In this document: in pieces, positions 10,529-59,149 of the stretch
Layout of the letters: each line of letters starts with the position of its first letter
How positions within the stretch are numbered: position 1 is the first letter of the stretch
IMG/VR virus record: IMGVR_UViG_3300048091_000424
DNA: 64,000 nucleotides
Strand: one strand, 5' to 3'
Origin: a virus
Lineage: Duplodnaviria; Heunggongvirae; Uroviricota; Caudoviricetes
Position numbers and translations under genes: made by a program
Notes under the pieces: generated by a model
What the model saw: only the letters and a program-made list of their open reading frames with translations
Told to the model about the DNA's origin: nothing
Database searches by the model: none

Positions 10529-10594
10529 TTAGCCATCAACGTGCACCGAGAGATCATCGTGATCAACCCTGTCGTCGCCAAGGAAGCCAGCCCT

Positions 10595-15433: not shown

Positions 15434-16462
15434 ATGAACACCCAATACCTTTTTGATGCCGAACAGTTCCGCGACGCCGTGTTCAAACGGGATCGACGTG
15501 TCTGTGTGTTTTGCTCGGCACCGGCTGAATCAGCCGCACACATCCTGGAATCCCAGCTGTGGGACGACGGCGGCCACTACCTGCAAAATGGCGCCAGCGT
15601 CTGCAGAGAGCACCGACTCGCTTTTGAAATGACACATCTGTTGCCTAAGCAAATTCGGATTGCTGCTCGTATCCCGGAAATACTGGTACCTCAGGACTAC
15701 TTTCCGACCACGCCCTATGACCACTGGGGCAACGAGATTTTGCACAATGGAATGCGTCTGCGCGGTGAGCTGTTTCTCGATGATAATGTCCAGCAGCTAC
15801 TGAGCCAGGGCCGCGTACTGGATCAGTTCACCTGGCAGGTGAAGTACCCAACCACCCCTCACCTACCATGGTCAGAAGGGATTCAGCGGGATGACCGCCT
15901 TCTGCGTGACGTGCTTCACTTCCTGGGTAAGCGCGTCGTCGTCACAATGAAGATGGATGGCGAAAACACCTCGCTTTACAGTGACTACATCCACGCTCGT
16001 TCGCTGGATTCAAGGCACCACGAATCTCGTGACTGGGTGAAAAACTTCTGGGCCAGATTCAAATGGCAAATCCCTGAAGGTTGGAGGATCTGCGGTGAAA
16101 ACCTGTTTGCCCAGCACTCGATCCGGTACAACGATCTGGTGAGCTACTTCAATGGCTTCTCGATCTGGAACGAACGCAACAAGGCGTTGGACTGGGATGA
16201 CACCCTGGGCTACTTCGACATCCTTGGGATCACCCCGGTCGAGGAAATCTACCGTGGCGTCTTTGACCAGAAGTTGATCCACACAGCCTACCTGGAAAAG
16301 TCAAAAGGCAAGGTGTGCGAAGGCTATGTCGTACGCGTGGAGGACGAGTTCGACTTCCGAGATTTCCGCCGTTCGGTGGCCAAGTTTGTCCGCAAAGACC
16401 ATGTGCAAACCAAAGATCACTGGATGACCAGTGAGATCATCCCCAACAAGCTGAAAGGTTGA
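15434..16462 (+). CDS. RNA ligase family protein with N-terminal HNH-like Cys/His module
   Basis: Nucleotidyltransferase motif I KMDGEN, CGEN, EGYVVR, KFVRKDH; N-terminus CVFC...AAHILE...GG...N...C..H resembles an HNH motif. Confidence 0.75.
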   Translation: MNTQYLFDAEQFRDAVFKRDRRVCVFCSAPAESAAHILESQLWDDGGHYLQNGASVCREHRLAFEMTHLLPKQIRIAARIPEILVPQDYFPTTPYDHWGNEILHNGMRLRGELFLDDNVQQLLSQGRVLDQFTWQVKYPTTPHLPWSEGIQRDDRLLRDVLHFLGKRVVVTMKMDGENTSLYSDYIHARSLDSRHHESRDWVKNFWARFKWQIPEGWRICGENLFAQHSIRYNDLVSYFNGFSIWNERNKALDWDDTLGYFDILGITPVEEIYRGVFDQKLIHTAYLEKSKGKVCEGYVVRVEDEFDFRDFRRSVAKFVRKDHVQTKDHWMTSEIIPNKLKG

Positions 16463-20910: not shown

Positions 20911-21516
20911 ATGCGCAAGCTGCCCAACTTGAAAGATCGGTTTTTCTACCACGGATCCCCGTGCTCCATTGATGTCTTCGACTACAAGTTCGCCGAGAAC
21001 GGGCAGGGATTTGGCTTTTACTTCACCACGGATAAATCCGGCGCCGCAGGCTTTTGCTCCGAAAACCCCATCACCAAGGCGGCGGGGTTACCTTTCGTCC
21101 CGACACTTCACAAAGTCCGCCTAAAGGTAGAAAACCCACTGGGTCACCAGCATGTCCAGGCGCTGACGAAGGCCCAATGCCGGGAGATCATTAAACGCGC
21201 TCCAAACCTCGAGGAAAGGCTCTGGAACACCTGGGATGTCGATAGCCTCGGTGCAGACAAAGCGCTGGATGAGGCAGCCAAGCTCTTTAGCGGCAAGGAT
21301 TGCATCCTCATCAGTACACTCAACCAAATCGCCAACGAATTCTTTGAGGGCGAGATGGGGGCGCTCAGCTCTGCCCTGCGCGACGTGACTGGTTACGACG
21401 GCTTGATCCGCACATGCGGTAAAGATGTGACGATCATGGCCTGGTTCCCTGACCAGGTCGAAATCGTGTCTCGCATCGACCCAGCTCTCGAACTGGATGA
21501 GGCGCCTGCACCATGA
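20911..21516 (+). CDS. Hypothetical protein; possible ADP-ribosyltransferase-like (ART-PolyVal-type) enzyme
   Basis: FYHGS...GFGFYFTT...GYDGLIR...AWFPDQVEIV recalls the H-Y-E ART pattern of polyvalent-protein ARTs (from memory, unverified); stop overlaps next start (ATGA). Confidence 0.5.
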   Translation: MRKLPNLKDRFFYHGSPCSIDVFDYKFAENGQGFGFYFTTDKSGAAGFCSENPITKAAGLPFVPTLHKVRLKVENPLGHQHVQALTKAQCREIIKRAPNLEERLWNTWDVDSLGADKALDEAAKLFSGKDCILISTLNQIANEFFEGEMGALSSALRDVTGYDGLIRTCGKDVTIMAWFPDQVEIVSRIDPALELDEAPAP

Positions 21517-22634
21517 GTGACACTACCCCAAGCGCCTTCGACCAGTTGGTAAAAATCCGCGTTGAAATCCGCAAGCATTGTAAGTCTCAGACTGGCGGCG
21601 ATCCGATGGACGTCTACGACCTCCTGTCCGACTACTGTGACATCTTGGAGCGCCTGGCCACCCAGCGGCAATATTCGGTCATGGCCACGGCCATGGATCG
21701 CCTCAACACCGTCGCTGAAGATTTGTTTCAGCGTCCGCACATGGTGCCGGTGATCGCCGATTTGTTTTTGGAGCGCCTCCCCTTTAGTCACCGCACGGTA
21801 TTCAACCTCGCTGGAAGTTTGACCGGCGTGCTGCGTGAAAACCTGTCGCAACTTGCTGTCGAAAACCTCATAGCCCACGAGGCATTTCTTTCAGATAGGG
21901 ATGAGCATCTCGCAGGTGGCGTTATCCGAAATCTGCTGCGCTATTGCGATAGTCCAGCACCGGCTTTGCAGTACGCGCAGTCGATCCTGCCCCTGTTCAA
22001 TAGTAAGACGTCGGGTTTTGAGTCAGTCCTAAGCGCCATACTCGACAGTAGAACATTGAAAAATATGCCTCATGAGAAATTCCAGCCTTTGGTGGAATGG
22101 GTGTCAGAGCTCGATGTTCTTACCTTGTGCCAAGGGCTAAAGCCGGGCTATGCCACGAAAGAGAGAGTCGCCATCTTCCGCGAAGCGGGCTTACCTCTTC
22201 TCGCCGATGGCCTCTACTATAAAAACAACCAGGTGAACGCTCGGGAGATGATCGAAATCCATAGGCGAACAGGCCTTAAACCCGACGCGGCATACCTTGA
22301 TCAATTCTTCGGCCAGGGTAAAACCCCTGAGGCGAGGGAGCTTCGCGAGCTGCTGAAGTATTCTTTGGCAGTTGAGAACGTTTTCCCACTGGACTGGGAG
22401 GGAATCAAAGCACCGTGGGTCACCAGCTCCCTGGTAGATGCTTTTGCCCGCCTCGAGCAGATGGGTGTAAGACCCCGCTCTCCTGAGGAATGCGAACCGC
22501 TGATTTCACAGTTGGGCGATCACCTTAGAAGCTCGGAAAACATGGACTCGCTGCTCAACAAAAAGACTAAGCCATACCTGCAGATCTCCCATAAATTTAA
22601 CGGCAAGCTGTTTGGCCTAGAACTCGGCCTTTAG
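21513..22634 (+). CDS. FxxDLGL-tail family protein (373 aa), subtype A
   Basis: Ends KLFGLELGL; shares LLKYSLAVENVFP and PRSPEECEPLIS with 25072..26253. Confidence 0.75.
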   Translation: MSDTTPSAFDQLVKIRVEIRKHCKSQTGGDPMDVYDLLSDYCDILERLATQRQYSVMATAMDRLNTVAEDLFQRPHMVPVIADLFLERLPFSHRTVFNLAGSLTGVLRENLSQLAVENLIAHEAFLSDRDEHLAGGVIRNLLRYCDSPAPALQYAQSILPLFNSKTSGFESVLSAILDSRTLKNMPHEKFQPLVEWVSELDVLTLCQGLKPGYATKERVAIFREAGLPLLADGLYYKNNQVNAREMIEIHRRTGLKPDAAYLDQFFGQGKTPEARELRELLKYSLAVENVFPLDWEGIKAPWVTSSLVDAFARLEQMGVRPRSPEECEPLISQLGDHLRSSENMDSLLNKKTKPYLQISHKFNGKLFGLELGL

Positions 22635-22644
22635 GGAATTTTCA

Positions 22645-23841
22645 ATGTCAAACCAAATTGCCCGTGATCTGACGCAAGCCGCACAAGCGCTGATCCGAAC
22701 CGTGAACGGCACCAATCCGGGCGAAGATGTTCTGCACCAACAATTATGGGATCTGGCTAATGCGTGCCATCTGGCCAAGCAAAATGACAGCCTCAATCTC
22801 CTGGCGCGTGCTCACCAGGCGGTAAAGGAAACGACACGAGGGTTCATGAACCTGGTCACACGTCGTGGATGTCCCGATGTCATCGCTCAGTACCTGGAGT
22901 TGTTTCCTCTCCATGAGCAATACGCTGAGGAGTTTTTGCAGATCATTCACGAATCGGAGTGTCTCAATGCGGCAGATAAGAGCCGCTTGCTTGGGGATCT
23001 GGTCGACAATGTTATCAAGCATGAAACCTTCACCGTGAAAAATCAGTTTGGGGGCACCGACTTCTACGACGCCCGCAAGTTTCTGGTGATGAATCTGAAT
23101 GGCTTCGAATTCGAAGAGGGCAAAAGCCTCGACTCCACGCCGCTTGGCAAATTCTGTACGAATCTCTGCGAGATCCGAAACGATGCCGCCGCCATCATAA
23201 TCACCACGTTGAACACGGCGGAAAGTGCCCGGTCGGCCAATGCGGCTGTTGGATACAAAGCTCTAGGATATTGGTTCAATGGTCATCAGCCGGATCTGTT
23301 TTTGGGTGTGATGCGCAACAATCCGTCTGACTACAATACCTTTAACATTGTGCAAACAACGAGGGATACGCTTGAGGCGCCCTACCTCGCCGCTTGCCTC
23401 AATATGCGTTCAATCGATCCTGATTTTGAGATCCTGATCGAAGGCCTTAAAACCTATGAACTCAGGGTTGATGAGACCTTTAAACGCACGATGGCGTACG
23501 ACTCTGATGGAGAGTCAATGCGAACTCTTTCTGAGGGAACTCTGGAGACATTGATCGCATACTCACTCACCGTCGAACATGTCTTGCCCCACGCCATACA
23601 GACTGTTGGGACGAAGTACGACCTCATCACAGCATTGGTCAACGCCGGTCGAGAAGTGGCGAAGCCCGAGTACCAGGCGTTTGATAGCAAAGCCAGGGCT
23701 CAAGAGGTCGTCGACTTTGTAATGGACAGGGTCACCGGGAAAGAGGACTTCTCCCAGATGGAGACCAGTTGGCTACTGCCGTATGCTCAAAAGAACCTTA
23801 CCTACCTCAAGCACGCGTTCAGTCGTGACCTAGGATTGTGA
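22645..23841 (+). CDS. FxxDLGL-tail family protein (398 aa), subtype B
   Basis: Ends NLTYLKHAFSRDLGL; collinear with 23882..25069. Confidence 0.75.
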   Translation: MSNQIARDLTQAAQALIRTVNGTNPGEDVLHQQLWDLANACHLAKQNDSLNLLARAHQAVKETTRGFMNLVTRRGCPDVIAQYLELFPLHEQYAEEFLQIIHESECLNAADKSRLLGDLVDNVIKHETFTVKNQFGGTDFYDARKFLVMNLNGFEFEEGKSLDSTPLGKFCTNLCEIRNDAAAIIITTLNTAESARSANAAVGYKALGYWFNGHQPDLFLGVMRNNPSDYNTFNIVQTTRDTLEAPYLAACLNMRSIDPDFEILIEGLKTYELRVDETFKRTMAYDSDGESMRTLSEGTLETLIAYSLTVEHVLPHAIQTVGTKYDLITALVNAGREVAKPEYQAFDSKARAQEVVDFVMDRVTGKEDFSQMETSWLLPYAQKNLTYLKHAFSRDLGL

Positions 23842-23881
23842 AATGTCTACCCGCCACCCATATCAACGAAGGAACGGATAA

Positions 23882-25069
23882 ATGACAACTCTGACGAGTA
23901 GACTCGCCACAGCGACCAAGGCTTTGCAATCCAGCCTAGAGCTCCGACATCCTTCCCCCGAGGTGTTGATGCAGCAACTGCACGACCTGGCGGAGATCGG
24001 GTATCAAGCCCATGGCACATTCAGCGTCAACCTCTTGGCAAAGCTTGATGGTGCGTTGAAGGACTGCACGCGAGGGCTGATGAGCAACCTGGAACGCAAC
24101 GAACATCCCGAAGTCATCGAGCTATTCCTTCAGCTGTTTCCTGTAAACGACCATTACGTCGTTGAGTTTATGGAAACAATCTGTCGTTGCGGGACTCTGG
24201 ACATAATTGAAAAAAGGAACCTGAGGGAGAAGCTGATTGCCAATGTGATCAATCATGAGACCTTGGCCACCTATGGTCGCGACGCCATCCTGAACCATAG
24301 CGCCGCGATAAACTTCATAGAGGCCAGCATGGACGGGTATGGCGATGGCGGCGAATCAGCTACTGTCGACAAGGTCTTCACTGACTTTTTCAAGTCAATC
24401 GTGCAGACACGATACGAGGGTGCCAATGTGCTTATGCGTGCGCTAAGCGCCAAAGAAGCCAATCCAGGCATCACCAAGCTGGACGGGTGGAAAAAGCTCA
24501 AGGCATGGCTCCTGGACAATGAACAGTTCGTAATCAGTTGCGTGCTAGCCAACGGGATGTCGGATTACAATTCCGCATCCAGCATCCTGCATGCTCAAAA
24601 TAGCTTGGGCTTACCTCACCTGGCCGCTGCCTTGAACCTACGGTCTTCAGATCCAATTTTGAAGGTTCTGGTTGAGGGTCACACCATCTATGGTTTGTCA
24701 GTGGATGAAAGCTTCATGCAGGGTATTGGCCTTACCGACGGTGGAACCCAGCGCAAGTTTGATCATCTTACCCTCGAGTGTCTCCTCGCCTACTCCTTGA
24801 TGATAAAACCCATTTTGCCTGACCCGCTGGAGCCCAAGGCCGCGAACAGCTTGGTTGAGTCTCTTTGCGCGGCTGCCAACATAGTTACTTTTGAGCAGTA
24901 TGAGAGGTTTGACTGCAAACCTAACGCTCAAGCGGTTGTCGACTTTGTGATGGAACGTGTGACCGGAAAAGAGAATTTTGCCCTGCTCGAAGACAGCTGG
25001 CTGCGCCCTTACGCCGAGAAGAACCTGACCTACTTGAAACACGCGTTCACTCGCGATTTGGGATTGTGA
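23882..25069 (+). CDS. FxxDLGL-tail family protein (395 aa), subtype B
   Basis: AAGGAA RBS; ends NLTYLKHAFTRDLGL; AQAVVDFVMERVTGKENF matches AQEVVDFVMDRVTGKEDF. Confidence 0.75.
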   Translation: MTTLTSRLATATKALQSSLELRHPSPEVLMQQLHDLAEIGYQAHGTFSVNLLAKLDGALKDCTRGLMSNLERNEHPEVIELFLQLFPVNDHYVVEFMETICRCGTLDIIEKRNLREKLIANVINHETLATYGRDAILNHSAAINFIEASMDGYGDGGESATVDKVFTDFFKSIVQTRYEGANVLMRALSAKEANPGITKLDGWKKLKAWLLDNEQFVISCVLANGMSDYNSASSILHAQNSLGLPHLAAALNLRSSDPILKVLVEGHTIYGLSVDESFMQGIGLTDGGTQRKFDHLTLECLLAYSLMIKPILPDPLEPKAANSLVESLCAAANIVTFEQYERFDCKPNAQAVVDFVMERVTGKENFALLEDSWLRPYAEKNLTYLKHAFTRDLGL

Positions 25070-25071
25070 TT

Positions 25072-26253
25072 ATGCCCACTCAGAACGCCCTACCCCCCAT
25101 TGTCCGTGACATCAGCCGGTACAATGACTTGCTCACAATCAATAATGAGTTGTACCGATTGGTTGTGACTGATGACCCGGATCCGCTCCTCGTTCACGCG
25201 CTGATGGTCGACTTCATTCAGGGAATGGATGACCTTGCGACCCAGCGCCTGCATGTCCTGGTGGGGAAAGCAGCCGCGATGATGGATGTGACCATTCTGG
25301 ATCTGTTCAAGCGTCCGGCAATTGCTGAAGTCATTTCTGAGTTGTACTTCCAACATTTTCAGGCACCGATTCGTCTGGTGTTCAGTATCGCTGCCGGGCC
25401 GGAAGGCCAACTGCTGACGGATGCATATAGCGATGAGCTGCGTGATGCTTTGGTGGCTCGGGGCGTCGAGAACTTGATCGCCTACGATGCTTTTACCACT
25501 GACACCGACCAGCATCTCATGGATTCGTTGATCATCCACATTCTTCGACTTAGCGAGCAAACTCAGCCAGCAGTGGACTTGTGCGACGCTATTGTGGGAC
25601 GTCGTAATGACAAAAAAGCAGGCATCGATGTCATATTTTCAGCGGTTTACATCGCCATCCAGGACGCAAAATATAAACCCGACGCTACCAGGCCTTTATT
25701 GGCTTGGATGCAGGGCAGGCAAGCTGATTTGGTCAACCAGATGGTCAATACCAAGCAGGGAATTTGGATGGCTATGGAACTGACTGACTTTTTTCAAAGC
25801 AACGGGCTGCAAGATCTTGCGGATCGCTGGTACCTTCGCTCCAGCTACTTGGATTTTCAGCGTTTGTACGCCATTCATCAGCGCTGTGGCTTGAAACCTG
25901 ATCAGGATTATCTGCAGCAATTCATCGCTGCCGATTGCAGCCCATCCATTAAGCTACTGGGTGACTTGCTCAAGTATTCGCTTGCAGTCGAAAATTTTAT
26001 CCCTGACGCCAGTAAACTCACCTTCAAGCCGACCTGGGTCACCAAATCCTTGGTGGATGCCTTCAACACCTTCCGCGAAATGGGCATTGAACCCCGCTCA
26101 CCAAAAGAGTGTGAGCCACTGATTTCCCTTTTGGCTGGGCATTTGAAAAGCGAAGAAACCATGACTCCCCTAATGGCCAAGGAAATCCAGCCCTACATCG
26201 CGATCTCGAATAGCTTCCAGACTAAAATGTTCGGCATGGACTTGGGTCTGTAG
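25072..26253 (+). CDS. FxxDLGL-tail family protein (about 393 aa), subtype A
   Basis: Track ORF 25066..26253; ATG at 25072; ends KMFGMDLGL. Confidence 0.75.
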   Translation: MPTQNALPPIVRDISRYNDLLTINNELYRLVVTDDPDPLLVHALMVDFIQGMDDLATQRLHVLVGKAAAMMDVTILDLFKRPAIAEVISELYFQHFQAPIRLVFSIAAGPEGQLLTDAYSDELRDALVARGVENLIAYDAFTTDTDQHLMDSLIIHILRLSEQTQPAVDLCDAIVGRRNDKKAGIDVIFSAVYIAIQDAKYKPDATRPLLAWMQGRQADLVNQMVNTKQGIWMAMELTDFFQSNGLQDLADRWYLRSSYLDFQRLYAIHQRCGLKPDQDYLQQFIAADCSPSIKLLGDLLKYSLAVENFIPDASKLTFKPTWVTKSLVDAFNTFREMGIEPRSPKECEPLISLLAGHLKSEETMTPLMAKEIQPYIAISNSFQTKMFGMDLGL

Positions 26254-26311
26254 GCCACCACACAAAAAGGGCCATGTAAATTTTTCTGGCTTAAGAATTA
26301 CGGAGTTAACA

Positions 26312-27514
26312 ATGTCAACTGATCCATTTGCCCGGCTCGAAAACATCAACCCCGGCATGGGCCGACAAGCCATGTGCGATGCCATCGTGGATGTCGGCAA
26401 GGCCCTTGAGGCAGCGCTACCAGCGTACGGCAGGATCACCTTGATCTCGCTGAGTCAGCAGATATTACAACTGCGCACGGAGCTGCTGGAAGCATTCCCG
26501 CTGATGGAGGATCCTGCCCCGTACCTGGCGCTGATTTCAGCCCTTCCGCTTGATATGAAGGCAGCACACCAGCTGACCTATGATTTTGGCAAGCTTGGTG
26601 ATGATCCCGGTCATGGGCCGGTGCTTTTTGAATTGACCCGTGCGCTGGTGGATAACTTAAAACGCAACAATACCCTCGAGCGCGAGGCTGAATTTTTCAA
26701 GCACTCACACACCCCTCGGGCAGCTGGAGATATCGTGTGGACAACCACCGATTTTGAAAGGGATTTTGATGACTTTGCTTACCTCCTGCTGGATAGTCAG
26801 GCGAAAGACCCACACTGCTGCCTCGACCTGGTCGAGCACGTATTTTCTTTTTCCATCAATTGCCGCGACCTCAATCTTCAAGGAGGCTTGCTAACGGCAA
26901 TGCTGGCCCTCAACACGACATTCAACCATGAATCCGCATGCTGGCCAGCCGTGAAGCAATGGCTCAAGACCCACGAAGATCGGGTCTGCACGAGCTTGTT
27001 GAGCCAAGGCTGGAGCCGACAATTCAAACCGGAGCTGGCCCAGAAGGCCTTGGCACTTGGCTACCCGAAACTGCACAATGCGATAGTGCTCCGCAGTTGC
27101 CGGCACAATGAAAGCAACTTTCTGGCGCTTAAGCGGTTCCACGGGATCGATCCCGATCAAACCTGCTACGACATCATCTTGAAAAATCATCGTGACGAGG
27201 CCTGTGGAGCAGACAGCACGAGTCTTACAGCCTTGTTGGCGCACGCCCTGGTGTACGACCACCAGATCCCGGAAGACTGGATGATCAAGGCTTCAGACTC
27301 ACCGCTGAAATTGCTGGATAGCGCATATCAGGAAGTCAAAAAGAATGGCTTAGTGCCATCCATTGACAAACTCCACGACTTGTTTGAGAAGTCCTTACGA
27401 AAGTTGCGTAATGATCGAGATTTGACGTGGCTGGAGTCGTCAATATTTGCCCCATTTCTCCGTCAGTCATTGGCCTATCAGGCTGAGCGCTTCGGGCAGG
27501 ATTTAGGCCTTTAG
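26312..27514 (+). CDS. FxxDLGL-tail family protein (400 aa), subtype C
   Basis: GGAG RBS; ends ERFGQDLGL. Confidence 0.75.
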   Translation: MSTDPFARLENINPGMGRQAMCDAIVDVGKALEAALPAYGRITLISLSQQILQLRTELLEAFPLMEDPAPYLALISALPLDMKAAHQLTYDFGKLGDDPGHGPVLFELTRALVDNLKRNNTLEREAEFFKHSHTPRAAGDIVWTTTDFERDFDDFAYLLLDSQAKDPHCCLDLVEHVFSFSINCRDLNLQGGLLTAMLALNTTFNHESACWPAVKQWLKTHEDRVCTSLLSQGWSRQFKPELAQKALALGYPKLHNAIVLRSCRHNESNFLALKRFHGIDPDQTCYDIILKNHRDEACGADSTSLTALLAHALVYDHQIPEDWMIKASDSPLKLLDSAYQEVKKNGLVPSIDKLHDLFEKSLRKLRNDRDLTWLESSIFAPFLRQSLAYQAERFGQDLGL

Positions 27515-33125: not shown

Positions 33126-33154
33126 TTGACACCTTTTTTGGTGGCCAGTAGACT
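33126..33154 (+). promoter_or_regulatory. Sigma70-like promoter TTGACA-N17-TAGACT for tRNA cluster 1
   Basis: Hexamers and spacing read directly; 18 nt upstream of tRNA-Asn. Confidence 0.6.
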
Positions 33155-33171
33155 TGATCTTGCAAGGCCAT

Positions 33172-33247
33172 TCCGTGATAGCTCAGTCGGTAGAGCATCG
33201 GACTGTTAATCCGAGTGTCCCTGGTTCGAGTCCAGGTCACGGAGCCA
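33172..33247 (+). tRNA. tRNA-Asn(GTT)
   Basis: Hand-folded cloverleaf: acceptor TCCGTGA/TCACGGA, anticodon arm TCGGA-CTGTTAA-TCCGA, TTCGAGT T-loop, encoded CCA. Confidence 0.9.
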
Positions 33248-33259
33248 GCCTTACGCACT

Positions 33260-33346
33260 GCCCGAATGGCGAAACTGGTAGACGCATGGGACTTAAAATC
33301 CTCTGCTCGAAAGGGCGTCCCGGTTCGACTCCGGGTTCGGGCACCA
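33260..33346 (+). tRNA. tRNA-Leu(TAA), class II
   Basis: Acceptor GCCCGAA/TTCGGGC, loop CTTAAAA, long variable arm, encoded CCA. Confidence 0.85.
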
Positions 33347-33356
33347 AGAATTCAAA

Positions 33357-33440
33357 GCCGAAGTGGTGGAATTGGTAGACGCGGCTGATTCAAAATCAGT
33401 TGCCTACGGCGTGCGGGTTCGAGTCCCGCCTTCGGCACCA
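33357..33440 (+). tRNA. tRNA-Leu(CAA), class II
   Basis: Acceptor GCCGAAG/CTTCGGC, loop TTCAAAA, long variable arm, encoded CCA. Confidence 0.85.
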
Positions 33441-33448
33441 AACAAGAA

Positions 33449-33476
33449 AGGCCCAGCATATGTCTGGGCCTTTTTC
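33449..33476 (+). terminator. Rho-independent terminator after tRNA cluster 1
   Basis: AGGCCCAG-catatgt-CTGGGCCT followed by TTTTT. Confidence 0.85.
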
Positions 33477-33504
33477 ATTTTACTGCGCCCTGGATGTCGT
33501 CATC

Positions 33505-33717
33505 ATGAAACGCCTGTTTAGTCTGTTGTCCGAGCTTACGCGCCCTGCCCCACAACCAAACCTGGAAGGTCGCATCGAACCTACCGTGCCACGGCACATA
33601 GCAGCCTCACCCTTCGAAATGGCCTCAGATGAGCTGGCCAGAGATGGCGCCCGTCGCTTCAGCAATATCGATCAATTACGCGACAGAGTGAAGGGAACGC
33701 TTAGTCCCAATAATTAA
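33505..33717 (+). CDS. Possible small protein (70 aa)
   Basis: In-frame ATG within track ORF 33400..33717, downstream of the tRNA/terminator; no clear RBS. Confidence 0.25.
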   Translation: MKRLFSLLSELTRPAPQPNLEGRIEPTVPRHIAASPFEMASDELARDGARRFSNIDQLRDRVKGTLSPNN

Positions 33718-33741
33718 TTTCAAATATTTTTAAAATTGCTG

Positions 33742-33771
33742 TTGACAGTGTTTCAGGATTAGTTCTATCTT
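33742..33771 (+). promoter_or_regulatory. Sigma70-like promoter TTGACA-N18-TATCTT upstream of micro-ORFs and tRNA cluster 2
   Basis: Hexamers read directly. Confidence 0.5.
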
Positions 33772-33803
33772 AGCTACATCACTAGTTCAACCGAGTTTTT
33801 GAC

Positions 33804-33896
33804 ATGACCACTTTCACTCAACGCGATGATGCACGGCAGCAGGACGAACGTCCTGATATCTGCTCGCGTGATGAACGCTCTGTCAAAACTTTCTAG
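33804..33896 (+). CDS. Leader-peptide-like micro-ORF 1 (30 aa, 12 of 30 residues D/E/R)
   Basis: My translation: MTTFTQRDDARQQDERPDICSRDERSVKTF; internal hairpin CAGGAC-GAAC-GTCCTG at 33840..33855. Confidence 0.35.
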   Translation: MTTFTQRDDARQQDERPDICSRDERSVKTF

Positions 33897-33908
33897 CATC
33901 TCAGATTT

Positions 33909-33970
33909 GAGGGCTAGACGCCCTCTTCTGCTAAAACAGCCGGGGGCCCAAACCTCCGGCTTTTTGTTTT
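33909..33970 (+). terminator. Hairpin (GAGGGC-tagac-GCCCTC) plus intrinsic terminator (AGCCGGGGG-cccaaa-CCTCCGGCT-TTTTTGTTTT)
   Basis: Inverted repeats and U-tract read directly; terminator stem 33938..33961. Confidence 0.7.
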
Positions 33971-33983
33971 AAGGATTTCTATC

Positions 33984-34061
33984 ATGGCTACTTACACTAA
34001 CTTCGCTGACCGGACTGATCGTGACGAACGTCGCGATGAGCGCGAGTGCCTGACTGTCTAG
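33984..34061 (+). CDS. Leader-peptide-like micro-ORF 2 (25 aa, 12 of 25 residues D/E/R)
   Basis: My translation: MATYTNFADRTDRDERRDERECLTV; AAGGA RBS 10 nt upstream; internal hairpin 34018..34037 centred on GACGAACGTC. Confidence 0.4.
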   Translation: MATYTNFADRTDRDERRDERECLTV

Positions 34062-34072
34062 TGCCGTGATAC

Positions 34073-34128
34073 GGGGCTAGAAGCCCCCAGACCGACGAAC
34101 CGGGGGCCATGGCTCCCGGTTTTTTTTG
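34073..34128 (+). terminator. Hairpin (GGGGC-tagaa-GCCCC) plus intrinsic terminator (ACCGGGGG-ccatgg-CTCCCGGT-TTTTTTT)
   Basis: Same two-hairpin layout as unit 1, with compensatory base changes; ends 12 nt before the first tRNA of cluster 2. Confidence 0.7.
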
Positions 34129-34139
34129 AGTGTTATTTT

Positions 34140-34215
34140 GTCCCTCTCGTCTAATGGCTCAGGATATCTGGTTCTCAACCAGGTGATTGGGGTTCGAGTC
34201 CCCAGAGGGAAACCA
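34140..34215 (+). tRNA. tRNA-Glu(CTC)
   Basis: Glu-type body GTCCCTC-TC-GTCT...; anticodon arm TCTGG-TTCTCAA-CCAGG; G1/A72 mismatch; encoded CCA. Confidence 0.75.
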
Positions 34216-34292
34216 ATTAGTGGTCATTGCCAGGTTAGAGGCGATGCCAGCAAGGAATAAAGCGCTCATTAAGGTGAGTGTCAAGTTTACAA

Positions 34293-34368
34293 GGCCCGTT
34301 AGCCAAGTTGGAAAGGTACGTGACTGTCTATCACGCATGCAGGGGTTCGAGCCCCCTACGGGTCGCCA
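34293..34368 (+). tRNA. tRNA with anticodon GTC (Asp by anticodon), non-canonical loop CUGUCUA (U37), Gln-like D-arm
   Basis: Acceptor GGCCCGT/ACGGGTC, D-arm GCC-AAGTTGGAAA-GGC, anticodon arm CGTGA-CTGTCTA-TCACG, encoded CCA. Confidence 0.65.
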
Positions 34369-34413
34369 CTTAGTTACACTTTTCGAAACTGAAAAGTGTG
34401 TTTTAAAAGTTAC

Positions 34414-34489
34414 GCTCCATTCGTCTAGCGGCCTAGGACGGAGGGTCTTCGCCCCTCTAACACCGGTTCGAATCCGGTATGGAGAACCA
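34414..34489 (+). tRNA. tRNA-Glu(TTC) with C33 (loop UCUUCGC)
   Basis: GCTCCAT-TC-GTCT-AGCGGCCTA-GGAC; arm GAGGG-TCTTCGC-CCCTC; G1/A72 mismatch; encoded CCA. Confidence 0.7.
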
Positions 34490-34529
34490 GTTATAGCTAC
34501 ACGTTTTATAAAGGTTTATAAGTTACAAA

Positions 34530-34604
34530 GGCCCGTTAGCCAAGTTGGAAAGGCATATGACTGTCTATCATACATCAGGGGTTCGAGCCCCCTACGGGTC
34601 GCCA
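34530..34604 (+). tRNA. Second copy of the GTC tRNA with loop CUGUCUA
   Basis: Anticodon stem TATGA/TCATA versus CGTGA/TCACG in copy 1, i.e. compensatory changes that preserve pairing. Confidence 0.65.
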
Positions 34605-34652
34605 TTTAAGTTGCACTCTGATGCATTTCAAAGTGTTGGTTTTAATAGTTTT

Positions 34653-34728
34653 GTTCCATTCGTCTAGTGGCCTAGGACAGAGGGTCTTCACCCCTCAAAC
34701 GCCGGTTCGAGTCCGGTATGGAACTCCA
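34653..34728 (+). tRNA. tRNA-Glu(TTC) with C33 (loop UCUUCAC)
   Basis: Acceptor GTTCCAT/ATGGAAC fully paired; arm GAGGG-TCTTCAC-CCCTC; encoded CCA. Confidence 0.7.
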
Positions 34729-34812
34729 ATTTTGTTCGTTGTGTGGAGTAATTTCTGTGTCGGCAATCGAAACATAGACACAATTAAAGCTGTCACTTTG
34801 GACACAAAACAC

Positions 34813-34890
34813 GGTTTGTTAGCTCAGCTGGATATGAGCGCCGGCTTGTCACGCCGGAGGTCGCGGGTTCGAGCCCCGTACAAACCGCCA
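34813..34890 (+). tRNA. tRNA-Asp(GTC), canonical
   Basis: Acceptor GGTTTGT/ACAAACC; arm CCGGC-TTGTCAC-GCCGG; GGTCGCGGGTTCGAGCCCCGT as in bacterial tRNA-Asp; encoded CCA. Confidence 0.9.
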
Positions 34891-34896
34891 CTTACC

Positions 34897-34973
34897 GCTT
34901 CTGTAGCTCAACTGGATAGAGCAGCGCCCTACGAAGGCGAAGGTTAGAGGTTCGAGCCCTCTCAGAAGCACCA
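34897..34973 (+). tRNA. tRNA-Arg(ACG)
   Basis: Acceptor GCTTCTG/CAGAAGC; loop CTACGAA; encoded CCA. Confidence 0.9.
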
Positions 34974-35004
34974 TTTCAAACGCCTGGCTCACCCCAGACG
35001 ATCT

Positions 35005-35083
35005 ACCCCAGTCGCCAAACTGGATTAAGGCACCGGTCTTCGAAACCGGTCATGTGCAAGTTCGAATCTTGCCTGGGGTACCA
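35005..35083 (+). tRNA. tRNA-Arg(TCG), Gln-like D-arm
   Basis: Acceptor ACCCCAG/CTGGGGT; arm CCGGT-CTTCGAA-ACCGG; T-arm GCAAG-TTCGAAT-CTTGC; encoded CCA. Confidence 0.75.
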
Positions 35084-35178: not shown

Positions 35179-35760
35179 TCAATGCTCCCACCACTTCGAC
35201 TTCGGTATGGCCGGATTCATCAGTCGGATTCGGTTTACCATCCCACCCGTCACATGCGAGTCCAGGAAGGTTAGAGGGTATTCCTTTCCCTTCAGCCACA
35301 GGGTTAGATTATACGTTGGGTTCCGGTAACCACTCCTCCCCGTCTGAGCTGTCTCGATCAACTCTGCGGGAACAATGGCGATACGAGCCGAAAAACGCTC
35401 GTAATACACGACAGCTCCGAGATCAAAGCACAAAAGAAGGTTTTTATCCCTGCCACGCCGTTCGGGGTCGCCGCTTAGCAGGTCACCCAGCACGAAATCA
35501 GCTCTTTTGCTGTGCAAATAAAGCCATTCGCTGACGGCGTAGATCCCCACCAGAATAATGGCCAGGGATAGCTCTGAAGCCACGGCGGTCAGCAGCCCGA
35601 CGACGCCCACCGCCCAGCGCCAGCGAAGTGTTACGAGACGCATCTGCTGCTTAAAATCAGCAAAGTACGCATCCGGAAGATCGTAGGTCACCACGCTCCT
35701 CGCGCCGGCGCCCTGATCCAAGGCTTTCGCCAACACACTGCTCAGCGATGTATCTGACAT
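35179..35760 (-). CDS. Hypothetical membrane protein (193 aa)
   Basis: Two adjacent hydrophobic helices; last gene of the minus-strand SPFH operon. Confidence 0.55.
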   Translation of the reverse strand: MSDTSLSSVLAKALDQGAGARSVVTYDLPDAYFADFKQQMRLVTLRWRWAVGVVGLLTAVASELSLAIILVGIYAVSEWLYLHSKRADFVLGDLLSGDPERRGRDKNLLLCFDLGAVVYYERFSARIAIVPAELIETAQTGRSGYRNPTYNLTLWLKGKEYPLTFLDSHVTGGMVNRIRLMNPAIPKSKWWEH

Positions 35761-39712: not shown

Positions 39713-40441
39713 TCAGGGTGTTTCCAGGGTTAACGTAGAACTCTCGTACGTTTCGTTGCTGTTCATCTCGACCAAGGTCAGGAAACCGTGCTGCTCGGGG
39801 TAGCAGACGCCGGTGTCGATGTAGCAGATATTGCCAAGCCTTTGTCGACTTTTAAGGGACGTGTGACCAACAAATAATATGTCTAAATTGCCTATCGTTT
39901 TGTTGTACCTGTCAACACGCCATACGGTCGATTCAGCCAAATGACTCCCCCTCAATAACTCGGGAGAGTAGTGGCTGATTTCCAGAACGAAATCATCCCA
40001 ATCATCCATAGGACATTGTGCGTGCACGATCCCAAATCGACGCCCATCTTGAGCTTCCACCTCGATAGCCAAGGGTAATCGCTGAAACGCGTGAATGATT
40101 GCCGCTCGGGTACCGGATGGCAGTTCATAGAACCAGGCTCCGCCATGATTGACATGCCTCTGCCGACGGCCTTGCAGATCTACGCCTGCAGCAATACACA
40201 TCAGATCGTGGTTGCCAATAACCGCATGCACCCAGGGTTTGGCCAGCCATTCGAGAACTTTTATGGAGAATGGGCCACGGTCGACCAGATCGCCGGCGAG
40301 AAACAAGCGGTCTTTTTCCGGGTCAAAACTGACATGCTCTAGCAGCGCTTCCAGTTCACAGAAATGCCCATGGACATCACTGGCAATGAAGTCTCGGCCA
40401 CGCGTGTTTTTTGAGAACTTGAGGTAGTTTTTATTGGTCAC
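39713..40441 (-). CDS. Ser/Thr protein phosphatase (lambda PP/PrpA-type metallophosphoesterase)
   Basis: DVHGH, GDLVDRGP, GNHD, VHAQ, GHT motifs; GTG start at 40441 after GAGGA (track start 40465). Confidence 0.85.
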   Translation of the reverse strand: MTNKNYLKFSKNTRGRDFIASDVHGHFCELEALLEHVSFDPEKDRLFLAGDLVDRGPFSIKVLEWLAKPWVHAVIGNHDLMCIAAGVDLQGRRQRHVNHGGAWFYELPSGTRAAIIHAFQRLPLAIEVEAQDGRRFGIVHAQCPMDDWDDFVLEISHYSPELLRGSHLAESTVWRVDRYNKTIGNLDILFVGHTSLKSRQRLGNICYIDTGVCYPEQHGFLTLVEMNSNETYESSTLTLETP

Positions 40442-40619
40442 GCGAGGCCATCCTCGACAACTCACAACCGCTATCGGGATGGGCCATCAATCAACTTACG
40501 ACAGCATTGAACCTGCAGGACGAAACGCCGCAAGGGACTCAACAAACTGGAGAGAAGAAGTTGACACAGGTAACCGACTTCGGAGGAGATTTTTGATGGC
40601 CCAGGTTAACACTTATTAT

Positions 40620-42872: not shown

Positions 42873-44021
42873 TTACGCCACGCCCACGGCTTCACTCACT
42901 CCCGCCGTCGGCAACATTACCGCTTTCGACCACGAGAACAATCGGCGTCCGATCTGAGGCGTCGGCAACTCGCCAATGCTCTGACCTTTAGACGCGTGCA
43001 GCTTCAACCACAGCCACGGCAGGTTAACCCCGCACAGCAGACTAAGGCCCAGGCCATCACTGAAGCGTGGGCTGGCGCTGAGCACCTTACAGCGACCCTC
43101 GCTGTCGAGCTTGAATTTGGCGTTGAACAAACCGGAAAATCCAAATTCACGGACGATTATTTGCAGCTGACGGCGCAGCTCCGGGTTGTCGACAATTAAC
43201 TCACCCTCCTCCTCGCCTTCCGGTTTCTGGCGAGCGACGTAGGTCACCAGCTGACCTTTCCACGCCAGGCAATCCACGGAGAATTCTTGGCCAGGCAGGT
43301 ACTCCATCACGATCCAGTTATTGGCGGCGCCGGCTTTGATCGAAGCCTGGTGCGCCAGCAAACCGAAATCAGGGAAGCGCATGACCTTGTTCTCGGGAAA
43401 GAACAGTTGCTGGTGTGGATCAGGGTGGTCGTCGAAACGGTAGAACGCTTTGCCGAGTAGCCGATTGGACGGTTTTGCGCACACGGCTTTAAGTTCGTCC
43501 GGAACAGCCACCATGCGTGTTTTGATGGTCGCCACGCTGTCATTCAACTGGGTCTCATAGTCGTCGTTCCAGATCAGCCAGGCCGGCACCATGTCGCCAT
43601 AGTAGGCCTGCTCAAGCCGGTGGTAGAACTCAGCCTTAACGTCGAGCACCGCCAGTTCCTTTGGCGAGCAGCTGTACAGCAACTCCACGCCGATGGCCCG
43701 GAAGTCTTCACGGCGCTCGATCATCGCTGCATAGAAACGACTGACGACGATACAGTCGATGCCATGCTCGGCGGCATAGCCCAGGGCCCAGTCAGTGTAA
43801 TCCTGCGCCGAAATGCTCGAAGCTTCGACCGCGACCTGGTCAGCCAGGGTGAAACCGATGAAGTTCGGATTGTGGTGCGTCACATGGATTTGTTGCAGAA
43901 TACGCTCGCTTTCATGGAGCATCGACTCATGTTGCTTGATGGACTGAATGGCTTCGGCGATCACTGCCATTCCGTCGTTGAACCAGACCTTGAGCTTCAC
44001 GTACACCACACCCTGAGCCAT
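42873..44021 (-). CDS. ATP-grasp enzyme (382 aa)
   Basis: WIVMEYLPGQEFSVDCLAWKG...VARQK...GLFNAKFKLD...KVLSASPRFSDG follows the ATP-grasp_4/CPSase-like pattern. Confidence 0.65.
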   Translation of the reverse strand: MAQGVVYVKLKVWFNDGMAVIAEAIQSIKQHESMLHESERILQQIHVTHHNPNFIGFTLADQVAVEASSISAQDYTDWALGYAAEHGIDCIVVSRFYAAMIERREDFRAIGVELLYSCSPKELAVLDVKAEFYHRLEQAYYGDMVPAWLIWNDDYETQLNDSVATIKTRMVAVPDELKAVCAKPSNRLLGKAFYRFDDHPDPHQQLFFPENKVMRFPDFGLLAHQASIKAGAANNWIVMEYLPGQEFSVDCLAWKGQLVTYVARQKPEGEEEGELIVDNPELRRQLQIIVREFGFSGLFNAKFKLDSEGRCKVLSASPRFSDGLGLSLLCGVNLPWLWLKLHASKGQSIGELPTPQIGRRLFSWSKAVMLPTAGVSEAVGVA

Positions 44022-48413: not shown

Positions 48414-49820
48414 TTAACGCCCTGGCCCGAAGTCAGTTTCCGGCTGCTCCTTGAGAAAGCGACTAACCGCATCGCGACGAGCTGTCCTCACCGCCGTCTT
48501 GGCAGCCTCCAGAATCAACGCCTTATCCGGTGTCCGGTTCCTTGCAATGGCCCGTGCCTCTTCCTTCGCCATGGTGGCCTGCATGATCGGGCCTGGCTTG
48601 ACCGAACTCACCGCTTCCATGGCGCTCAGCAGGTAAGCTCCCTGCAGATACGTTTCTGGCCTTTTGGTCGAACCATCCTTTTGACGAATACGTCGGCCAA
48701 AGTTATCCGCTGCGCACATCGTCGCCACATCCCCTAAAAAGGCCTTGTCGTGGCGCTGAATTCGATCAAGGTCAAGGCGCTCATATAGCGCCTGAAGGCC
48801 CTGGCGACCTGCTGACGAAATGCGGTGTACTTCTTGATGGGTCAACGCACATTTGTGCACAAAGTACTGGATTTCAGACGGCATCTTGATGCGGGCGGCC
48901 AGCGTGTCAAGAAGCCCCTCAAAACGTTCTACATTTTCGTGCCCATGGTGATGGCCACGAACGGAGCCGTCCGCGTACCACAGCAAATCGGCTGGTGTCT
49001 TGATCTTGCCCAGGTCATGGAGCAAAGCAGCCATGCGAATCCGCAGAGAGCTCGCCGTTGAATGGCCCGTCGTTAGCTTGGCCGCTTCATCGAGAACCAT
49101 CTTGGTATGGATCCAGACATCACCCTCGGCGTGGTAATCATCCCGCTGTGGAACGCCCTTCATCTGCTCCAGTTCAGGGAACAGGACTTTCAGCGCCCCA
49201 CAGGCATCCAGCACATCAAAATAGACGTGTGGGTTGGGTGTCAGCATCGCCTTCTCGGTTTCTTTCCAAATCCGTTCTGGCTTGATGTTGGGCTTGCCGC
49301 TCGGCGTCGTTGGATTGAGCATCCCTTTGGACGTCATCTCAGTCATCAGAGACATGGTCTCTGGCGCCACAGAGAAGTCGTACCTTGCCGCGAAGCGGGC
49401 TACGCGCAGAATGCGCAACGGATCCTCAGCAAAGCTCGGGCCGACATGCCGCAGCGTGCGATTTTGAAGGTCTTGTTGGCCGCCGTAGGGATCGAACACC
49501 GTTCCGTCATCCAGCTCGGCCATGGCGTTGATGGTGCAATCCCGGCGCCCAAGATCTTGCTCCAGCGTGATGCCTTCCCACTTGTACTTGAAGTCGTTGT
49601 AACCATCACCGGTGCTGATTTCCGAGCGGCCAAGGGCGTACTCGTCGCCGGTTTCTGGGTGCAGAAAGACCGGGAAATCCCCGCCCACCTGGGTAAAGCC
49701 GCGACTCAACATTGACTCCGGTGATTCGCCGATCACCACATAGTCGATATCCGTGGGCTCAAGGCCAAGCAGCCTATCCCGGACACAACCCCCCACTCTG
49801 TAGCACTTCTCAAATGTCAT
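48414..49820 (-). CDS. cca: CCA-adding tRNA nucleotidyltransferase with HD domain
   Basis: ATG 49820 after GGGAGGA; YRVGGCVRDRLLG...DIDYVV head motif; HD motif AALLHDLGK. Confidence 0.9.
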   Translation of the reverse strand: MTFEKCYRVGGCVRDRLLGLEPTDIDYVVIGESPESMLSRGFTQVGGDFPVFLHPETGDEYALGRSEISTGDGYNDFKYKWEGITLEQDLGRRDCTINAMAELDDGTVFDPYGGQQDLQNRTLRHVGPSFAEDPLRILRVARFAARYDFSVAPETMSLMTEMTSKGMLNPTTPSGKPNIKPERIWKETEKAMLTPNPHVYFDVLDACGALKVLFPELEQMKGVPQRDDYHAEGDVWIHTKMVLDEAAKLTTGHSTASSLRIRMAALLHDLGKIKTPADLLWYADGSVRGHHHGHENVERFEGLLDTLAARIKMPSEIQYFVHKCALTHQEVHRISSAGRQGLQALYERLDLDRIQRHDKAFLGDVATMCAADNFGRRIRQKDGSTKRPETYLQGAYLLSAMEAVSSVKPGPIMQATMAKEEARAIARNRTPDKALILEAAKTAVRTARRDAVSRFLKEQPETDFGPGR

Positions 49821-49930
49821 AGGCCTATATCCTCCCTGACGGGTACCAAGTGCGTGTGTCTTACGCACGCGCTCACATGTTAAATTCAAGTATGACTCAC
49901 GCCGCAACGGCAAAGAAGAGATTCTCGTGC

Positions 49931-58421: not shown

Positions 58422-58479
58422 AAAAATGTTCCCTTTTTGAGAAAAGAAGCCGGCAGCAAGTGCGTGCCGGCATTAGCAG

Positions 58480-59073: not shown

Positions 59074-59149
59074 GGAAATTACCCTATCAGACAGTGAATT
59101 AAATGGTGTGAATTGGCGGGGCCTAATTGCGGCCCCACCGAGTGGCCAG

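Follow-up and report, generated by a model that had tools for sequence, protein, structure and literature searches.

Some bacteriophages carry transfer RNA (tRNA) genes in which the anticodon is normal and the arm around it differs from that of the host isoacceptor, and such tRNAs have been proposed to remain whole while the tRNAs of the host are cut, which has been shown for T5. The T5 tRNA-Lys resists AriB through two substitutions (PMC12409363), and the general hypothesis that tRNAs of mobile elements escape host tRNA nucleases has been set out (PMC10264068). Here we describe a tRNA array in a stretch of 64,000 nucleotides (hereafter the window) that is filed in IMG/VR as a virus of the Caudoviricetes (IMGVR_UViG_3300048091_000424) and that we assign to a Pseudomonas megaplasmid. 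Five tRNAs of the array, for Glu and Asp, have unusual bases beside the anticodon or at the acceptor end, and the array lies behind two putative leader-peptide attenuators.

Leader-peptide attenuators of the trp, his, leu, thr and pheL/pheM type are known from amino-acid operons and from pheST. The region upstream of the array resembles those of trp, his, leu, thr and pheL (PMC3082878) in having a short open reading frame (ORF) with regulatory codons, an intrinsic terminator and mutually exclusive pairings set by the ribosome, with stalling predicted to cause read-through. The closest described carriers are the Pseudomonas plasmids pMPPla107 and pBASL58, with 54 and 44 tRNA genes, for which tRNA-depletion cost or codon bias has been proposed as the reason (Smith et al. 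2019, PMC6482414). They are elements of the same kind, with a homologous Glu/Asp/Arg array and leaders, and the account of them by Smith, Leligdon and Baltrus does not treat loop variants, G1·A72 or attenuators.

The locus appears to belong to a known class, that of mobile-element tRNAs whose anticodon arms are altered, to which it adds a megaplasmid as carrier, changes at near-universal positions and an apparently undescribed attenuator of a tRNA operon. Unlike phage escape tRNAs, those described here are carried by a plasmid of conjugative type and encoded behind putative leader-peptide attenuators; they depart from the norm at the near-universal U33 and purine 37, in the 1:72 pair and at the discriminator, and any resistance to cleavage is hypothetical.

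Fold, conservation and identity of the five tRNAs

ARAGORN places 11 tRNA genes at 33172-35083 on the + strand. All 11 exceed the gathering score of 29 bits of the Rfam tRNA covariance model (RF00005), the five unusual ones with 43.8-56.2 bits (Table 1). A reading of the window from its letters alone (the sequence-only reading) had singled out these five by hand folding. It reported C33 in the loops UCUUCGC and UCUUCAC of two tRNA-Glu(UUC), U37 and a Gln-like D arm in two GUC tRNAs with loop CUGUCUA beside a canonical tRNA-Asp at 34813, and a G1·A72 mismatch in tRNA-Glu(CUC) and the first tRNA-Glu(UUC). All of these features are borne out. ARAGORN and the Rfam model agree on the 7-nucleotide loop register, the same as in that reading, and neither refolds any of the four genes with C33 or U37 into a loop with canonical U33 and a purine at 37. 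Alternative registers, with a stem shifted to give the anticodon CUU or with 9-nucleotide loops, were tried by hand folding, and none combined a 5-bp stem with a 7-nucleotide loop.

The U33 rule is broken at 34414 and 34653 (C33) and kept in the other three genes. The purine-37 rule is broken at 34293 and 34530 (U37), the Glu genes having A37 or G37, and the 1:72 pairing rule is broken at 34140 and 34414 (G1·A72). The Pseudomonas chromosomal tRNA-Glu has loop CUUUCAC, G1-C72 and G73. The five genes form canonical cloverleaves, with stems of 7/3-4/5/5 bp, a 7-nucleotide anticodon loop, a GTTCRA T loop and all 20 pairs kept. Both Asp variants have a Gln-like D stem of 3 bp (GCCA/AGGC), and two double compensatory changes separate their anticodon stems (CGUGA/UCACG and UAUGA/UCAUA).

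An exact-protein match and a genome scan located the array sequence of the window on NZ_JAQIYM010000090.1, plasmid unnamed1 of Pseudomonas serbica strain IT-P366 (1,059,468 bp). The array sequences are present unchanged in one isolate genome, two JGI metagenomes and two SRA assemblies, and because of this recurrence the odd bases are not an assembly artefact or a sequencing error. In PLSDB, the 1.17 Mb plasmid pPL1 of P. silesiensis is a diverged relative that aligns to 95% of the tRNA region with 79% identity; pMPPla107 and pBASL58 are more distant. In the examined pieces of these three plasmids, 20 window proteins gave 23 tblastn matches, with identities of 46-84% to pPL1 and 25-59% to pMPPla107 or pBASL58. 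The window is roughly syntenic with all three, and the tRNA arrays are homologous. Like pMPPla107, the carrier is a Pseudomonas replicon of ~1 Mb with a guanine-plus-cytosine (GC) content below that of the host (0.50-0.57 along the window, ~53% overall), many tRNAs and a common gene content and order. Based on these matches, the window comes from a Pseudomonas megaplasmid of ~1.06 Mb, a relative of pMPPla107, and not from a phage.

The window has a phage-like look, with many orphan ORFs and a few PHROG matches, and its CCA-adding enzyme has its nearest relative in a Pseudomonas jumbo phage (50% identity). A phage origin was considered and rejected: DNA matches in the phage collection were to single tRNAs only, the neighbouring 521-residue ORF had no protein match, and plasmid relatives were found.

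Compared with pPL1, the tRNAs are 80-97% identical, the short spacers 43-73% and the flanking proteins 46-84%, mostly 50-65%; tRNA-Glu(UUC) variant 1 is 97% identical to its pPL1 ortholog. All 20 pairs are present in each of seven Asp-variant sequences from three plasmids, 10 of these pairs with compensatory changes (RNAalifold), and in each of 10 Glu sequences, where 14 pairs have such changes. The unusual bases persist as well. Both pPL1 copies of tRNA-Glu(UUC) have the C33 loop UCUUCGC. G1·A72 is kept in pPL1 tRNA-Glu(CUC) and tRNA-Glu(UUC) copy 1 and the rest of the acceptor stem covaries, in tRNA-Glu(CUC) at 6:67 and 7:66; the tRNA-Glu(CUC) of pBASL58 also has G1·A72. U37-A38 is found in three of three pMPPla107 Asp genes (CUGUCUA), of which copy 1 has the same anticodon arm as variant 1 of the window. 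C33 tRNA-Glu is confined within the family to the diverged branch formed by this plasmid and pPL1.

The canonical tRNA-Asp has an ortholog in pPL1 from which ~21-22 nucleotides including the anticodon arm are missing (about 5760-5810 of the pPL1 piece L066) and which is not called by ARAGORN; both variant Asp genes are intact beside this decayed copy. Thus, decay in the array does occur and looks unlike the odd variants. The five genes might still be pseudo-tRNAs or tRNA-like elements with a role outside translation, such as integration sites or processing signals. This would agree with the broken U33, purine-37 and 1:72 rules, with the Rfam scores of the Glu variants, which are the lowest of the cluster (43.8-52.4 bits), and with the published annotation of pMPPla107, which credits it with no Asp or Glu tRNAs (PMC6482414). 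We consider it very improbable, given that all stems are intact with compensatory changes, that CCA is encoded, that GluRS-type D arms and the AspRS set G73, G10 and anticodon are present, that the genes are far better conserved than the spacers, that the true pseudogene of a homologous array differs in carrying a deletion, and that the upstream leaders use the cognate codons.

The sequence-only reading had argued from the paired changes in the Asp anticodon stems for selection on the fold rather than decay. Its argument gains from the relatives, in which the stems are kept with covariation, and the odd tRNAs look selected. At the level of sequence, the comparison shows the odd positions to be conserved, or recurrent in mobile elements (see below), and not signs of decay. 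All five are very probably functional tRNAs that would be expressed and charged.

The identity set of glutamyl-tRNA synthetase (GluRS) comprises U11-A24, U13·G22, a 4-nucleotide variable region and U35-C36, and also G1-C72, U2-A71 and A37. In the alignment the Glu genes have all of the first four, and their D arm, GUCUAG.GGCCUAGGAC, is of the type of the Pseudomonas chromosomal tRNA-Glu. The gene at 34653 also has G1-C72, U2-A71 and A37; the gene at 34414 has G1·A72, C2-G71 and G37, and that at 34140 has G1·A72. For aspartyl-tRNA synthetase (AspRS) the determinants are G73, G10, G34-U35-C36 and C38 (PMC9976931). The Asp variants carry G73, G10 and G34-U35-C36, with A38 instead of C38, as do the pPL1 and pMPPla107 copies. 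In P. aeruginosa, AspRS is of the non-discriminating type. The altered identity that the sequence-only reading had offered as an alternative, and with it recoding, is unlikely because the Glu and Asp identity sets are present. A Gln or Glu identity of the GUC tRNAs, with their Gln-like D arm, was also tried and rejected: they are without G36/U38 and the U11-A24 set and have G73, G10 and GUC.

Eukaryotic cytoplasmic initiator tRNA-Met is functional with C33 and acts in the ribosomal P site. The plasmid C33 tRNAs, unlike it, are bacterial-type elongator tRNA-Glu. If the five odd tRNAs work in translation, even the near-universal U33 and purine 37 would be dispensable in working elongator tRNAs.

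Putative leader-peptide attenuators upstream of the array

The ~700 nucleotides between the upstream Asn-Leu-Leu operon and the Glu/Asp/Arg array are 78% identical to pPL1, a level of conservation like that of a coding region. They hold a promoter-like site, whose TTGACA box stands at the equivalent place in pMPPla107 and pBASL58, and two tandem units of a leader ORF and a switch (Table 1). Leader 2 has a run of 13 codons of which 12 are for Asp, Glu or Arg. The leader codons GAC, GAT, GAA, GAG, CGG, CGT and CGC are exactly those read by the array anticodons GUC, UUC, CUC, ACG and UCG; AGA and AGG occur in neither leader, versus 20% of the Arg codons in the window genes.

Both leaders are present in pPL1, with in-frame insertions of 24 nucleotides in leader 1 and 9 in leader 2, the latter adding Asp-Arg-Glu. 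There are two in pMPPla107, MNTFAFERFDERREDRDDRPCACI and MSIDICSLDRRDEREDR, and one in pBASL58, MNTFAQERFAERRDDRDDRTCAFV. Every homologous leader of the four plasmids is followed by the same hairpin-plus-terminator and then by Glu/Asp/Arg tRNAs. The seven leaders consist of 40-59% Asp, Glu and Arg (each P 2e-5 to 4e-3), and all seven intrinsic terminators have a U run, the tested segments reaching -32 to -46 kcal/mol. The terminators were folded singly, because the alignment register differs between plasmid groups and column-wise covariation failed. Comparison of the four plasmids shows the anatomy of a candidate attenuator and its conservation.

Co-transcriptional folds were computed with the transcript cut just 5' of the terminator 3' arm and a ribosome mask of 31 nucleotides. 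With the A site at codons 6-27 of leader 1, UCUAGC/GCUAGA is paired and GCCCUC is free for GGGGGC in the terminator 5' arm. With the A site at codons 28-31, the stop-codon region is masked, GAGGGC/GCCCUC forms and the terminator arm is released. Leader 2 is predicted to switch in the same way between stalls at codons 12-17 and 21 and the stop codon; stalls at codons 9 and 19 give other long-range folds. Untranslated leader RNA is predicted to read through. Across six homologous switches, pairing reaches 91% in the two 'on' helices versus 33-61% with slid partners, with three compensatory pairs (1:2 C-G to U-A and A-U to G-C; 3:4 C-G to U-A), and 94% in the 'off' hairpin, where one pair is compensatory (slid controls overall 33-67%). 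Pair counts from six sequences are supportive, not conclusive, and the statistics are modest.

In the mechanism that we propose, a ribosome reading the codons fast would get to the leader UAG and mask region 1, and the terminator would form. When reading is slow, the ribosome would stall upstream and the stop-codon region would pair with region 2; the freed C-rich strand would then pair with the terminator 5' arm, and transcription would continue into the tRNA genes. The array would in this way be an on-demand source of Glu, Asp and Arg decoders. We consider attenuation control of the array probable, judging from consensus scans and thermodynamic folding. The reliance of promoter and attenuator on consensus scans and ribosome-masked folds is a reservation, and so is the equilibrium folding of the whole leader, in which the terminator always forms; the attenuator model consequently depends on co-transcriptional kinetics.

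Unlike the attenuators of amino-acid operons, the plasmid version would regulate the tRNAs that read the regulatory codons, and for three amino acids at once. It also differs in its five pairing segments, in the stop codon inside region 1, in the tandem arrangement and in the predicted read-through of untranslated RNA. We found no published description of leader-peptide attenuation of a tRNA operon. This is apparently the first proposed tRNA operon regulated by ribosome stalling at codons that its own tRNAs read, which would give direct feedback on decoding capacity, and the attenuators may help to explain how a plasmid of 1 Mb keeps its translational cost in check.

A scan of ~420 loci for a leader, a terminator and cognate tRNAs returned only this plasmid family and one ambiguous phage case. 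The latter is an IMG/VR viral contig (L176, 1600-2130, minus strand) with an ORF ending in four CAA (Gln) codons, a strong intrinsic terminator, three tRNA-Gln(UUG) and a GlnRS-like ORF (HLGHAKS). The four Gln codons appear to form the 3' end of a longer ORF, and this may or may not be a Gln-sensing attenuator.

Table 1. Position and properties of features in the 64,000-nucleotide window
Feature	Position	Strand	Details
Upstream operon	33126-33475	+	Promoter-like site, tRNA-Asn(GUU), tRNA-Leu(UAA), tRNA-Leu(CAA), terminator; without leader
Promoter-like site	33742-33771	+	TTGACA, 18 nucleotides, TATCTT; consensus scan, 10/12 matches; kept in pPL1
Leader ORF 1	33804-33896	+	MTTFTQRDDARQQDERPDICSRDERSVKTF, then stop; Asp/Glu/Arg 12/30 residues, binomial P = 3.6e-3
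Switch 1	33891-33966	+	Region 1 UCUAGC (stop codon inside), region 2 GCUAGA, hairpin GAGGGC/GCCCUC, terminator 33938-33961 and U run
Leader ORF 2	33984-34061	+	MATYTNFADRTDRDERRDERECLTV, then stop; Shine-Dalgarno AAGGA 33971-33975; P = 5.2e-4
Switch 2	34057-34131	+	Region 1 34057-34062 (UAG inside), region 2 GGCUAG, hairpin GGGGCU/AGCCCC; for the antiterminator GCCCCC (34083-34088) can pair with GGGGGC (34102-34107); terminator 34097-34122 and U8, ending a few bases 5' of tRNA-Glu(CUC)
tRNA-Glu(CUC)	34140-34215	+	Loop UUCUCAA, G1·A72, A73, CCA encoded
tRNA-Asp(GUC) variant 1	34293-34368	+	Loop CUGUCUA (U37 A38), 3-bp Gln-like D stem, G1-C72, G73
tRNA-Glu(UUC) variant 1	34414-34489	+	Loop UCUUCGC (U32 C33 G37), G1·A72, A73
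tRNA-Asp(GUC) variant 2	34530-34604	+	Loop CUGUCUA, 3-bp Gln-like D stem, G1-C72, G73
tRNA-Glu(UUC) variant 2	34653-34728	+	Loop UCUUCAC (U32 C33 A37), G1-C72, U73
Canonical tRNA-Asp(GUC)	34813-34890	+	Loop UUGUCAC
tRNA-Arg(ACG) and tRNA-Arg(UCG)	34897-35083	+	Array end, canonical loops
PTH2-domain protein	8535-9278	-	
RNA_ligase-domain protein	15434-16462	+	N-terminal part of 166 residues without family match
P-loop protein of 807 residues	18344-20767	+	Weak AAA_22 match; weak BrxD match, E = 0.005
Five consecutive paralogous ORFs	21513-27514	+	373-400 residues, 21-37% identity, no family match
Lambda-phosphatase-like metallophosphoesterase	39713-40465	-	
Multifunctional CCA-adding/repair enzyme	48414-49913	-	HD domain

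The unusual bases in other genomes and possible escape from tRNA-targeting enzymes

To follow the unusual bases beyond the plasmid family, 185,579 species-representative genomes and IMG/VR were scanned with a tRNA-Glu pattern of proteobacterial type with loop UCUUCRC. The species genomes gave 49 matches, of which the only real tRNA lies on the P. serbica plasmid. In IMG/VR, tRNA-Glu(UUC) with UCUUCGC was found in four viral contigs (three distinct sequences), with other acceptor and T arms and inside unrelated tRNA clusters. Exact-sequence patterns of the Asp and Glu variants had no match in IMG/VR, and looser loop-centred patterns were needed. A pattern with U37-A38 or G37-A38 returned at least 115 tRNA-Asp among the matches listed, on very varied backbones, and tRNA-Asp with U37-A38 was found in at least 86 viral contigs with many backbones. 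Among cultured viruses, Aeromonas phages Aeh1 and phiAS5 encode a tRNA-Asp(GUC) of this type, with CUGUCUA and G73 as on the plasmid and, like many uncultured viral contigs, with different backbones. No leader was found upstream in the viral U37-A38 tRNA-Asp loci that were scanned.

For an unselected estimate we compared IMG/VR with bulk metagenomes, using a pattern blind to positions 37 and 38 and samples of 120 loci. U37-A38 occurs in 9/95 distinct viral versus 1/67 metagenome tRNA-Asp (Fisher P = 0.047), and a pyrimidine at 37 in 13/95 versus 2/67 (P = 0.026). Over all isotypes, pyrimidine 37 was seen in 20/957 viral tRNAs, 14 of them tRNA-Asp, and in 4/246 bulk-metagenome tRNAs; non-U33 was seen in 47/957 (4.9%) viral versus 2/246 (0.8%) bulk-metagenome tRNAs. 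None of 147 sampled Glu tRNAs has G1·A72, the commonest type having G1·U72 with A73. Against such low metagenome rates, the odd bases of the array go beyond chance. Based on these counts, tRNA-Asp with U37-A38 is a virus type that occurs widely, and C33 recurs in a minority of mobile-element tRNAs. We found no publication that remarks on C33 or U37 in phage tRNAs. The sequence-only reading lacked this virus-type tRNA-Asp, as it lacked the megaplasmid carrier and the leader-peptide attenuators.

Its suggestion that the loops serve to escape anticodon nucleases can be set against the known enzymes. The Glu variants differ from the host tRNA-Glu (CUUUCAC, C72-G73) at 32/33 and at 72/73, which are at or beside the known cleavage sites of RloC/PrrC and of NC101. 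RloC and PrrC cleave at 33|34 and 34|35; RloC has tRNA-Glu and tRNA-Gln among its natural targets and cleaves them both 5' and 3' of the wobble base (PMC3874168, PMC3458546). The tRNAs preferred by Cas13a are those for Lys, Glu, Gln and Thr (PMC11042736). CdiA-CT NC101 cuts C72|G73 of tRNAs with G73, its best substrates being tRNA-Asp and tRNA-Glu, and a discriminator change from G to A protects (PMC5737660); the discriminator is A73 or U73 in each of the three plasmid Glu genes, two of which also have A72, versus the host-type C72-G73. Cleavage of the tRNA-Glu anticodon stem-loop by gamma-toxin is abolished by single changes at 37 or 38 (PMC2275089). Nuclease escape is plausible by analogy with these enzymes and would fit RloC, Cas13a and CdiA-CT NC101.

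The explanation that we favor joins these observations. A single array of five odd tRNAs, a canonical tRNA-Asp and two tRNA-Arg would be expressed from behind a promoter and two tandem attenuators. Its tRNAs would decode Glu and Asp as usual and differ from those of the host beside the anticodon, at 32/33 in Glu and at 37/38 in Asp; the Glu tRNAs also differ at the acceptor end, where A72 and A73, or U73, replace C72-G73. With the odd bases, these copies would stay in service under attack on host tRNA-Glu and tRNA-Asp by cutting or modifying enzymes, whether from the host, from rival elements or from competing bacteria. As a whole, from functional tRNAs through attenuated expression to escape, this explanation is tentative and falls a little short of an even call. 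Evasion of tRNA-targeting enzymes as the reason for the variant bases, with the tRNAs insensitive to these enzymes, is possible and somewhat doubtful. A rather unlikely extension is a self-contained backup-decoder circuit, in which the tandem attenuators would sense slow reading of Asp, Glu and Arg codons, for instance after cleavage of host tRNA-Glu, Asp or Arg by an anticodon or acceptor-end nuclease, and would switch on plasmid tRNAs that are poor substrates (U32-C33, U37-A38, A72-A73 or U73). In a bolder version the nuclease would be encoded elsewhere on the same megaplasmid, making the cell dependent on the plasmid tRNAs.

If the favored explanation is true, tRNA-based counter-defence of mobile elements extends from phages to megaplasmids, and UCUUCRC tRNA-Glu and YUGUCUA tRNA-Asp would be signatures of mobile-element tRNAs that point to undiscovered tRNases.

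Escape keeps part of its support: the carrier is a mobile element, the fold is selected, the odd bases are conserved or recurrent, and those of Glu fall at or next to cleavage sites. Several points weigh against it. No tRNA-targeting nuclease was found among ~67 window proteins (Pfam, PHROGs, PADLOC or NCBIfam), no anticodon nuclease or defence gene was found near the array by PADLOC and NCBIfam, and we know of none that targets tRNA in the host strain. U33C leaves gamma-toxin cleavage unaffected, and gamma-toxin is the only anticodon nuclease tested on this change (PMC2275089). The Asp variants keep U33-G34-U35 and C72-G73 and should remain substrates of enzymes of the colicin E5 and NC101 types; with A38 for the listed AspRS determinant C38 they may also be charged more poorly. 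A canonical tRNA-Asp coexists with them in the window. Position 37 looks relaxed, being G in the pPL1 Asp-variant loops CUGUCGA and AUGUCGA and either A or G in the two tRNA-Glu(UUC) copies. The anticodon loops of pBASL58 are all canonical. The viral non-U33 loops are mostly C33 (C32-C33) and occur in many isotypes; a weaker constraint on redundant genes could account for this.

The toggling of position 37 between U and G or A and G, the scatter of viral C33 over isotypes and the canonical pBASL58 loops would also be expected if the array did no more than supply tRNAs for translation of a lower-GC plasmid of 1 Mb, with attenuators matching output to demand and odd bases near-neutral in redundant genes. 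The ~53% GC of the window, its balanced codon use (GAA 0.51, GAT 0.49, UUA+UUG 0.24 of Leu) and the reasons proposed for the pMPPla107 and pBASL58 tRNAs (PMC6482414) agree with this. Near-neutrality fits poorly with C33 and G1·A72 being unchanged where neighbouring proteins are only about 55-65% identical, with the recurrence of U37-A38 on dozens of unrelated backbones, almost confined to tRNA-Asp, with the loss of the canonical tRNA-Asp in pPL1, which kept the variants, and with C33 tRNA-Glu not being found in the cellular genomes scanned beyond this plasmid. We regard supply alone as rather unlikely to be the full explanation.

Positions 32, 33, 37 and 38 are classical sites for tuning of decoding and for modification determinants, and the odd bases fall on them. 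The flanking bases could repel or redirect host loop-modification enzymes, or adjust ribosome affinity for GAN codons, with no nuclease involved; candidate modifications are m2A37, glutamyl-queuosine on tRNA-Asp and mnm5s2U34 on tRNA-Glu. The Asp specificity of U37 would suit such tuning, as the strong C36-G pair may need a stacking purine 37 least, and C38 is a tRNA-Asp determinant (PMC9976931). Tuning leaves the acceptor-end changes of the Glu genes unexplained, and a benefit to the plasmid from avoiding modifications is without evidence. We consider it improbable.

Other genes of the window and its relatives

Beyond the array, the RNA-ligase protein, CCA-adding enzyme, PTH2 protein and phosphoesterase of the window (Table 1) suggest a capacity for tRNA repair. 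The RNA-ligase protein had no match among PDB sequences. The ORF of 193 residues at 35179-35760 (- strand), which converges on the array end, is the best-conserved protein of the array neighbourhood, being 84% identical in pPL1 versus 50-65% for its neighbours, and has no family match. The P-loop gene of 807 residues lies in a low-GC island (0.417 at 18-20 kb versus ~0.53 elsewhere) that looks like a separate acquisition. A match to the ART-PolyVal ADP-ribosyltransferase domain was seen in one of 47 smaller window ORFs.

Some gene content is common to the family. A sigma-70-family factor and a Ter-type stress cluster (ATPgrasp_Ter, TerD-like, DUF475/TerC), at 10541-11353 (+), 42873-44021 (-) and 58026-60262, are shared with pMPPla107. 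Runs of hypothetical proteins of ~380 residues, similar to the five paralogous ORFs of the window, flank Leu tRNAs in pMPPla107 and pBASL58. In pMPPla107, serS lies beside the Leu tRNAs, and the plasmid has its own transfer-messenger RNA (tag ANNDNFDAPVALAA) adjoining smpB (record 837336-838265). Judged from gene content, the plasmids of this family carry second copies of much of the translation-rescue machinery.

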